A DNA stretch of 41,429 bases from a virus. A program made the position numbers and the translations under genes. Below are positions 38,400-39,081 of this stretch, piece after piece. Where the stretch lies: UHGV virus genome UHGV-0014571; one strand, 5' to 3'. Position 1 is the stretch's first letter. Each line of letters opens with the position of its first letter. Below the pieces are notes generated by a model, which was not told the origin of the DNA, made no database searches, and worked only from the letters and a program-made list of their open reading frames with translations.

Positions 38400-38413
38400 T
38401 GTTTTCCCCCTTT

Positions 38414-38447
38414 TCTTAATCTGATTATATTATATCACCGTATGCAG
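38414..38447 (-). promoter_or_regulatory. consensus sigmaA early leftward promoter
   Basis: Minus strand TTGACA(38447-38442)-17 nt-TATAAT(38424-38419). Confidence 0.55.
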
Positions 38448-38517
38448 TGATTGTCAACATTTTTCACTGTAAAAAGTGAATTTTCGCATTTTACACAAAA
38501 AGGAGTGAGATTATTTA

Positions 38518-38744
38518 TGTATGTTAACCAAGACATGGCTACTCGCATTAAAGTACGTGCCAAAACACAAAAAATTGCAATGAAAACTATGCTTTCCGAC
38601 CTAGAATTAGGAATTAATTTAATATCCCATTTGGCGAAAGGTCAGAACATAACAGCCATAAATCTCGCTAAAATCGCCGACTACTTAGATTGCTCCGTTG
38701 ATTATCTGTTAGGCAGGACAGATAATCCTGAGATTAATAAATAA
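38518..38744 (+). CDS. small XRE HTH regulator (75 aa), paralog 1
   Basis: RBS AAAGGAGTGAG. C-terminus KIADYLDCSVDYLLGRTDNPEINK. Confidence 0.65.
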
Positions 38745-38781
38745 GAGGTTCTTTTCTTAATTTGATTATATTATATCACGG

Positions 38782-38825
38782 TATCCCGCAACAGTCAACG
38801 GTATCCCGCAACAGTCAACGGTATC
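38782..38825. repeat. two tandem copies of the 20-bp GGTATCCCGCAACAGTCAAC plus partial third copy GGTATC; on the minus strand each contains a TTGACT -35 box
   Basis: ggtatcccgcaacagtcaac ggtatcccgcaacagtcaac ggtatc read directly. Upstream GATTATATTATATCAC(G)GTAT duplicates the sequence at 38411-38433. Confidence 0.6.
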
Positions 38826-38853
38826 TATTGTATAAACTTGAGGTGGGTTTTTT

Positions 38854-39081
38854 ATGTATAATGCACAAACAACAGCTGATGTAATTAAAAAAATGCTAAT
38901 TGACAAAAAAACAACAGCGAAAAATATGTGTGAACAGTGTAATCTAGGAATAAATACCATATCAAATATTCGACGCGGCGATGTAAAGAGTATAGAAACC
39001 TTTTACATAATCGCTGACTATCTGGATTGTTCCGTCGACTACCTGTTGGGTAGAACGGATAATCCTAAAATTAATAAGTAA
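38854..39081 (+). CDS. small XRE HTH regulator (75 aa), paralog 2
   Basis: RBS GAGGTGGG. C-terminus IIADYLDCSVDYLLGRTDNPKINK, nearly identical to paralog 1. Confidence 0.65.
   Translation: MYNAQTTADVIKKMLIDKKTTAKNMCEQCNLGINTISNIRRGDVKSIETFYIIADYLDCSVDYLLGRTDNPKINK

Follow-up and report, generated by a model that had tools for sequence, protein, structure and literature searches.

Two neighboring cassettes of a compact, immunity-type family that is widespread in prophages of gut Clostridia lie upstream of the leftward early operon in the virus genome UHGV-0014571, which we analyzed over its whole 41,429-nt stretch (the window, 41.4 kb). Each cassette carries a leftward promoter, predicted operators and the gene of a small helix-turn-helix (HTH) protein of the XRE type. 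Our preferred reading, to which we give a probability of roughly 60%, is that these two cassettes differ in DNA specificity and place two promoters in series before a single early operon, each gated by its own repressor.

The two units, of 341 bp and 337 bp, are arranged head to tail and abut without any spacer. In both, a conserved box is found together with a leftward promoter close to the consensus and a gene for a 75-amino acid (aa) XRE protein, hereafter XRE75. Their features are as follows.

38410 to 38750: cassette unit 1 (proximal), comprising the box, P_L1, O1-A/O2-A and the HTH1 gene, with repeat families D1, D2 and D13.
38429 to 38457, minus strand: P_L1, leftward early promoter, TTGACA-17-TATAAT, 12/12 consensus positions, with TG, predicted start near 38422.
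38435 to 38450: predicted operator O1-A, TCACCGTATGCAGTGA, an inverted repeat (TCAC-N8-GTGA) in the 17-bp spacer of P_L1.
38464 to 38479: predicted second operator O2-A, TCACTGTAAAAAGTGA, 29 bp from O1-A.
38517 to 38744, plus strand: HTH1, XRE-type protein of 75 aa, allele A.
38751 to 39087: cassette unit 2 (distal), comprising the box, P_L2, operator repeats and the HTH2 gene.
38770 to 38798, minus strand: P_L2, second leftward promoter, TTGACT-17-TATAAT, 11/12, with TG, predicted start near 38763.
38778 to 38817: two exact 20-bp units, ACGGTATCCCGCAACAGTCA, each with an HTH2-type core ACGGTATCCCGCA (38778-38790 and 38798-38810) and a copy of TTGACT.
38854 to 39081, plus strand: HTH2, XRE-type protein of 75 aa.
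39099 to 39129, plus strand: intrinsic terminator at the end of the rightward HTH1-HTH2 unit, with an 8-bp stem (5 GC pairs) followed by TTTTTTATTG.

An earlier, sequence-only reading of this DNA had proposed that a block of promoter/operator plus small XRE gene occurs twice, the first copy forming a TTGACA-17-TATAAT promoter on the minus strand, and both points are borne out. The units start with CTTTTCTTAAT(C/T)TGATTATATTATATCAC, and the first 35 nt of the two copies match at 32 positions. A repeat finder reports these starts as repeat D2 (38410-38458 and 38751-38799, 84%), the 3' ends of the two open reading frames as repeat D1 (38672-38750 and 39009-39087, 80% at the nucleotide level) and the exact 20-bp tandem at 38778-38797 and 38798-38817, which is followed by a partial third copy at 38818-38825. 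P_L1 lies upstream of a 39-aa gene and the minus-strand early operon. A promoter scan found only four sites matching at least 11 of 12 positions in 4.1 kb, two of which are P_L1 and P_L2. The second TTGACT copy was considered as part of another promoter and rejected, because no suitably spaced -10 was found. The XRE genes are divergent from 12/12 or 11/12 early promoters with a predicted operator in the spacer, which is the layout of a CI/Cro-type module, and since the operator sits inside the spacer of a consensus promoter, repression of that promoter is predicted. In addition, O2-A probably overlaps with the -35 element of a weak promoter that would read rightward into HTH1. Within the 41.4-kb window, the operator type of each cassette is unique to that cassette: TCAC-N8-GTGA occurs twice, as O1-A and O2-A, and the core ACGGTATCCCGCA is confined to the 20-bp repeats, a count reached in 0/100 shuffles.

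While the C-terminal ends of HTH1 and HTH2, AKIADYLDCSVDYLLGRTDNPEINK and YIIADYLDCSVDYLLGRTDNPKINK respectively, are near-identical, as the same reading had noted, the two proteins share only 51% identity overall, and their last 25 codons comprise 10 identical ones, 12 synonymous differences and 3 residue changes. When diverse members of the family are aligned, IADYL(D/N)(C/V)SVDYLLGRT at the C terminus proves to be a near-invariant motif (17 invariant columns), which is why we attribute the likeness of the two ends to family-wide purifying selection. The unit interiors, which comprise the operators and the N-terminal 50 residues, are unrelated in their predicted specificity. The simple duplication proposed earlier thus gives way to two heterospecific family members, the proximal of which is exchangeable: a recent tandem duplication is ruled out by the synonymous divergence of the 3' ends, the low protein identity and the different operators. 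HTH2 matches the Pfam families HTH_26 (29.9 bits, cut-off 22) and HTH_3 (26.2 bits, cut-off 23); HTH1 scores slightly under both cut-offs (21.0 and 19.8 bits) and is recognized by the hidden Markov model (HMM) of the family with 125 bits and by phrog_8 (transcriptional regulator) with 1.7e-12. A search of the PDB with single sequences gave no match and the family profile was required, which matches the ICEBs1 Xre-family regulator (7t8i, 6e-07), SinR and the DNA-binding domains of the 434 and P22 repressors. HTH1 and HTH2 consist of a DNA-binding domain alone, with no cleavable C-terminal domain. They therefore depart from the ImmR-type layout, in which the C-terminal region is cleaved by an adjacent M78 ImmA, since that region is absent and ImmA is not adjacent.

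How widespread the cassettes are is apparent from the 2047 homologues of HTH2, nearly all of ~75 aa, on contigs of gut and rumen Clostridia. The family HMM was built from alignment A1 and applied to all fetched loci (those of relatives, loci or contigs, are labeled L001 to L121 here). In a genome scan, 417/600 candidate stretches were confirmed, in Lachnospiraceae, Oscillospiraceae, Ruminococcus, Clostridium and others, and the box pattern retrieved only seven loci from IMG/VR. Among 80 genome-sampled members, 43 have a divergent promoter matching at least 11/12 positions no more than 170 nt upstream of the gene (vs. 0.75% of shuffles), and in 23 of the 80 the match is a perfect 12/12. In most cassettes the -10 lies ~78-83 nt from the ATG, the 17-bp promoter spacer is nearly always occupied by a 16-bp palindrome, and a second operator copy is found 28-32 bp away (in 45 cassettes) or, in the HTH2 subfamily, 20 bp away. 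In L014-L018, L041 and L114, a plus-strand extended -10 (TGnTATAAT) to the left of the box and facing P_L (e.g., L014 ~300-330) is likely to be the rightward promoter of the XRE gene; we looked for the same element in the window lineage, where it is absent. Our literature search did not find the C-terminal motif, the family or the tandem cassettes described.

The palindrome in the spacer changes together with the protein. Across 77 cassettes, it covaries with residues 24-47 (r=0.535, reached in 0/500 label permutations), less with residues 1-23 and least with the conserved C terminus. For example, TCTCTAAnTTTAGAGA goes with LGFNTMSNMK-TSMPKA, and TCACAAGTACTTGTGA with LSINTLSSMQSGGYPRL. According to an alignment with the 434 repressor, and to the known position of helix 3 in that protein, residues 24-47 run from helix 2 through the recognition helix into the loop behind it. 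At the sequence level, the covariation is the signature of cognate repressor/operator pairs.

The same logic applies to the 20-bp repeat. All HTH2-type cassettes carry cores of the form ACGG(T/A)(A/T)TnnCGC, with a CGG-N4-CCG quasi-palindrome and a 20-bp spacing, and the core shifts together with the protein: ACGGTTT(T/C)CCGC in L010, ACG(A/G)TATAACGC in L014, and ACGGTATTCCGC in L018 and L114. Because such equally spaced, protein-matched cores recur in all of these cassettes, we predict that the tandem corresponds to the operator pair O1/O2 that characterizes the HTH2 subfamily. The exact tandem described earlier is confirmed, but a role in duplicating the -35 is not: the second TTGACT is a by-product, because the 20-bp unit contains the -35. 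Copy number is one or two. The window and 6 related contigs have two copies and 8 others have one, irrespective of the HTH1 allele, and L111 likewise has one site. Having a single unit leaves P_L2 itself unaffected.

Comparison with close relatives reveals that the proximal cassette is exchanged. An HTH2 identical to that of the window is encoded on 23 contigs, all with another small XRE gene in front of it. This gene comes in at least three alleles (A-C), and a fourth (D) is found on a backbone with 96% HTH2 identity (P0002). Alleles A-D each have inverted-repeat sites of their own, at the same two positions.

Allele A operators: TCACCGTATGCAGTGA and TCACTGTAAAAAGTGA.
Allele B operators: TCACAAGTACTTGTGA and TCACAAATTCTTGTGA.
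Allele C operators: TCACTAAATTTAATGA and TCGCTAAATATAACGA.
Allele D operators: TCATGC...GTGA and TCATGCAAAAACATGA.

The exchanged block extends from directly after the -10 box to the ...AKIADY codons, and the box and the 3' end are unchanged in close relatives. The exact HTH1 is present on 11 contigs, and wherever the contig is long enough an HTH2-type cassette comes next. The proximal HTH1 cassette, as judged from these alignments, is an exchangeable insert.

The distal promoter has a different history. In L010/L011, an HTH2-type protein (81% identity) belongs to the sole cassette, which has the same layout and whose promoter lies directly before a homologue of the 39-aa gene, followed by the early operon. 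The same order is seen in L014-L017 and for the third cassette of L018. Because in L010/L011 an HTH2-type cassette alone fronts the 39-aa gene and the operon, P_L2/HTH2 is the orthologue of the sole early promoter/repressor of single-cassette relatives, here displaced 341 bp upstream by the HTH1 cassette. TTGACT-17-TATAAT in the second copy is thus present as the sequence-only reading had it, at 11/12, and is not the chance recreation of a promoter but the homologue of one. P_L2 is intact in all related contigs that we read.

Tandems of this kind recur. Two or more co-oriented family genes are present at 18 of 80 genome loci, in some cases tightly packed with later genes that lack a promoter of their own. 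True cassette tandems, whose members each come with a separate box, a promoter matching at 11/12 and a distinct pair of operators, have differing junctions in four other cases.

Clostridium sp. MD294/ASF356 prophage: 290-bp gap containing a hairpin, and additionally a third module that is complete.
L030: 173-bp gap.
L091: ~170 bp duplicated leader.
L114: 227-bp gap, the distal member again of HTH2 type.

Tandem cassettes are found in at least five lineages. A series layout is also seen in L111 (1100-3122). There, the gene of a CI-type repressor of the S24 (LexA-like) class points away from a box with an operator and a TTGACT promoter, behind which come a DUF739 gene and a 39-aa peptide, the whole lying upstream of an XRE75 cassette with a 38-aa peptide of its own. 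Since true tandems recur and L111 has its modules in series, it appears to be a repeated design that the early transcription unit contains internal promoters which are reverse-oriented and self-gated. At positions 1200-3300 of L018/L028 (Clostridium sp. MD294 = ASF356, NZ_CP097810.1), three XRE75 cassettes and two peptide/HTH early-operon starts lie within 2 kb of prophage DNA. This is a cultured mouse-gut strain and hence a tractable experimental system for the cassette family.

From this anatomy, homology, covariation and recurrence, we infer how the cassettes might work. The AT-rich box would serve as the -10 of a promoter that points away from the regulator gene, with one operator in its 17-bp spacer and a second two or three helical turns further on, and, starting ~80 bp away from the -10, the gene of an XRE protein with an invariant C-terminal helix. 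Most likely, a dimer of each XRE protein occupies the two cognate operators and thereby closes the leftward promoter of the same cassette; the protein probably also autoregulates its gene. P_L1, directly before the 39-aa gene, would be gated by HTH1, and P_L2, 341 bp further upstream, by HTH2. Transcripts from P_L2 would cross HTH1 in antisense and enter the early operon, and such read-through is expected because a terminator scan found no minus-strand terminator-like site between P_L2 (38770) and P_L1 (38457). Silence of the early operon would then need both repressors, while loss of either could start transcription, and firing of P_L2 would lower HTH1 by collision or antisense. The second leftward promoter running antisense through HTH1 was already part of the sequence-only reading, and the lack of a terminator agrees with it, but as a means of control the antisense arrangement is a consequence of geometry, with no evidence of selection for it. 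As for immunity, phages of either specificity would be excluded from a lysogen, single-specificity lysogens would be open to a stacked phage, and a proximal swap would change the immunity type, in keeping with alleles A-D on one backbone.

Stacking might go further and be a selected strategy, a proposal we regard as possible yet doubtful. The benefits would be escape from single-specificity lysogens, a lysogen that itself excludes both types, fast immunity turnover through proximal swaps and an antisense kill-switch on the proximal repressor. The family would in addition be a natural library of dozens of orthogonal pairs, each made up of a 16-bp operator and its 75-aa repressor, whose recognition code could be read.

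The wider genome is that of a ~41.4-kb temperate phage of gut Clostridia, of which an essentially identical 41,459-nt metagenomic contig exists. Among GenBank phages, megablast of 20 kb found no close relative, and sensitive blastn of the region gave a sole match of 48 nt, to two Streptococcus prophages. Lytic genes run leftward from 38399, including a Cro-like HTH gene at 37449-37643. The plus strand encodes an ImmR-type protein of 178 aa (40733-41269), an M78 ImmA-like peptidase, a serine recombinase, a 353-aa YHYH membrane protein and both XRE genes, which are therefore co-oriented with the lysogeny genes (ImmR, ImmA, recombinase) and opposed to the lytic operon. The layout with an M78 peptidase next to the repressor fits this 178-aa protein, its M78 neighbor being visible in L002. 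A three-member repeat family (TTGTTACGTAAGTATA-like; 40346-40369, 40593-40616 and 40638-40661) lies around the divergent promoters of a Cro-like gene and ImmR and past the Cro-like gene, and its members are probable ImmR/Cro operators. The 353-aa protein (39233-40294, plus strand), with a signal-like N terminus, a YHYH domain and several hydrophobic segments, is encoded backwards between the Cro-like gene and HTH2 and is likely lysogen-expressed cargo. In the structural region, a single minus-strand open reading frame of 3415 aa (6005-16252) is unusually long for a 41-kb phage. In relatives, Ant, pRha or Bro genes are found between this region and the cassettes, in the leftward operon immediately upstream of the XRE75 gene, a placement that suggests an antirepressor cascade like those of Gifsy or 186 (PMC3121763).

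Several observations weigh against two repressor-gated promoters in series. We found no convincing candidate for a rightward promoter of HTH1 or HTH2 in the window scan, and plus-strand promoter matches upstream of family genes are no better than in shuffles for the 80 genome-sampled members. A plus-strand promoter at 38221-38249 was rejected as the promoter of HTH1 because a strong terminator (~38347-38392) precedes the gene. Eight of the 14 related contigs keep only one full HTH2 operator, which could reflect relaxed constraint on the distal cassette. In L121 (800-1478), HTH2 is cut after ~20 codons and followed by a different open reading frame with a YSDESG-type motif, with P_L2 and one operator intact. 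Either HTH2 would be dispensable there, or the output of P_L2 would stop short of the early operon (e.g., at an HTH1 roadblock), or the genome is defective; as it stands, L121 argues against a strict double lock or else marks a defective genome. No ImmR-type operator is present near P_L1 or P_L2, so that direct action of ImmR at either promoter was rejected, and no antirepressor (Ant, pRha or Bro) was recognized in the window phage. The notion of a second tier beside the ImmR/ImmA/Cro-like region at 40.6 kb, put forward earlier, is consistent with relatives, as the S24 module in series in L111 shows, but the absence of ImmR-type operators speaks against a direct connection here.

The loss of operator units and the variant lacking a functional-length HTH2 would suit a recombination leftover, a transitional stage of cassette replacement in which HTH1 newly landed and took control while HTH2/P_L2 became a decaying relic with an antisense output that is mere noise; that HTH1 is variable and exchanged while HTH2 is constant would fit as well. 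We consider this unlikely, although it retains appreciable weight, since the exact HTH2 persists on 23 contigs, P_L2 is intact in all related contigs that we read, and in four or more further lineages with independent junctions the distal cassette still has its 11/12 promoter and its operator pair. Moreover, an unrepressed near-consensus promoter directed into a repressor gene and the lytic operon should be rapidly lost or mutated.

A further explanation is that HTH2, under autoregulation, chiefly controls cargo that is transcribed rightward in the lysogen, namely the 353-aa protein here and toxin-antitoxin or SocA genes in relatives, the leftward promoter being incidental to the box. RelB/YoeB, Phd/YoeB or SocA_Panacea genes do often follow HTH2-type genes on the same strand. 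In the window, however, the 353-aa gene lies beyond a terminator that follows HTH2 and has a promoter-like site of its own, and the HTH2 operators are located within and beside the leftward promoter, not downstream. With the same promoter placed directly before the early peptide and HTH operon in L010, L014 and L018, this explanation is improbable.

The first gene behind P_L1 also deserves attention, since a predicted antisense small RNA (sRNA) overlaps it.

38280 to 38399, minus strand: gene of the 39-aa peptide, with a Lys-rich N terminus and a hydrophobic helix.
38221 to 38392, plus strand: predicted cis-antisense sRNA gene, with promoter TTGACA-17-TATCCT (38221-38249), 5' hairpin (38253-38277) and terminator stem plus T-run (~38347-38392).

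A similar peptide is the first leftward gene in ~20 related loci. It matches no Pfam-type family in NCBIfam and no known toxin family. On the opposite strand, TTGACA-17-TAT(C/T)(C/T/A)T followed by a GC hairpin past the peptide stop is present in 18/18 examinable loci (the window and 17 relatives). The terminator stem lies inside the 5' codons of the peptide gene, with the T-run formed by Lys codons; it has -19.5 kcal/mol in the window, and stems of -11 to -20 kcal/mol with a T-run, differing in sequence, are found in ~14/20 loci. Because a conserved promoter, 5' hairpin and terminator occur together, we predict a cis-antisense sRNA of ~130 nt (~38256-38390). An Rfam search over 36.5-41.4 kb returned nothing meaningful and no sRNA match. 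By prediction and conservation, the gene of a small hydrophobic peptide is thus overlapped by a convergent gene for an antisense RNA that has both a promoter and a terminator, which is the layout of type I toxin-antitoxin systems, and the pair looks like such a unit or like an antisense threshold on the early mRNA. The module of promoter, peptide and sRNA would be common to two repressor classes, because the S24 module of L111 carries it too. Streptococcus phage Javan73 (MK448830.1; L001, 290-530) has a stand-alone analogue in which this box, TTGACA and TCACGGTATACCGTGA, a perfect palindrome, precede a 43-aa hydrophobic, Lys/Arg-rich peptide gene, with a convergent TGnTATAAT promoter and a hairpin beyond it; this unit lies between the lysin gene and the genome end, and no XRE gene is adjacent.

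The idea that the cassettes primarily control this toxin-antitoxin-like unit, with the XRE proteins as extra repressors of a toxin promoter, the early operon as a mere downstream neighbor and the second cassette as a toxin-less duplicate, draws on its conservation beside P_L in the window and the 17 examinable relatives and on the stand-alone version in Javan73, but is very unlikely given that many family cassettes face a Cro-like HTH or other gene with no peptide, that the early operon has no other strong promoter downstream of the peptide gene, and that the peptide, a hypothetical toxin, matches no known toxin family.

Temperate phages of gut Clostridia are abundant, yet to our knowledge hardly any study has addressed how they decide between lysis and lysogeny. 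The cassette is very common and very compact, its protein-DNA specificity can be read from covariation, and it is both exchanged and stacked. If the logic of promoters in series is true, it would offer phages a simple route to change and broaden immunity, and it would be a testable case in which read-through from another gated promoter silences the gene of a repressor. A conserved antisense sRNA over the first early gene would add a further, unreported layer of control. Finally, anaerobic Firmicutes could be equipped with orthogonal repressor/operator parts taken from these cassettes.

Among known systems, the immunity regions of lambdoid phages, 434 and P22 offer the closest parallels in layout, with an XRE-fold repressor divergent from an early lytic promoter, operators (here predicted) overlapping that promoter, a Cro-like HTH in the lytic operon, and repressor and operators exchanged as a unit among similar phages. 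The profile of the cassette family also matches the 434 and P22 C2 DNA-binding domains. However, the cassette repressor has only 75 aa, with no C-terminal oligomerization or cleavage domain, there are two operators and not three, and one of these sits exactly in the 17-bp spacer. In addition, two cassettes are stacked in series, and there is a separate ImmR/ImmA module.

In the rstR/ig-2 region of CTXphi, a small repressor gene and the adjacent intergenic operators vary as a block to give heteroimmune types, and arrays may hold more than one allele. The cassettes, too, vary as a block of repressor and operators between conserved flanks. The NCBIfam RstR match is nevertheless far under the cut-off (20-24 bits vs. 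80), the phage type and the promoter layout are different, and tandem alleles in CTXphi come from whole tandem prophages instead of two cassettes before a single operon.

Convergent transcription is the basis of another group of switches, of which prgQ/prgX of the Enterococcus plasmid pCF10 is an example, along with pR/pL of coliphage 186 and Pe/Pc of P2. P_L2, which points in the lytic direction and is antisense through HTH1, would resemble them through interference and an antisense RNA. Here, though, the overlap is the whole gene of a second, different repressor, and interference is predicted from geometry alone.

C repressors of the P2 family bind direct repeats about two helical turns apart at the early promoter, and the sequence and spacing of these repeats differ among heteroimmune relatives (PMC2995052, PMC1904268). 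The predicted HTH2 sites are likewise two direct repeats, a likeness in the layout of the sites. In contrast, the P2 promoters Pe and Pc are face to face, and each HTH2 site is in itself a short quasi-palindrome (CGG-N4-CCG).

Two-layer control is known from immC/immI of P22 and from antirepressor cascades of the Gifsy or 186 type (PMC3121763). As in these systems, a damage-sensing layer (here ImmR/ImmA) is apart from a small uncleavable repressor that would hold the lytic operon, and the Ant, pRha or Bro genes of relatives are in the operon that the first layer would release; the window differs in that no antirepressor gene is recognized.

Mycobacteriophage Mcgavigan carries, beside its own repressor, a second one of foreign specificity that has been proposed to widen superinfection immunity (PMC12700041). 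Judging by its name (Bxb1-like), that repressor is from another family, and it is in an operon of its own with no second promoter stacked before the early genes (PMC12700041), yet Mcgavigan, like UHGV-0014571 as we read it, is a phage with an extra repressor of foreign specificity.

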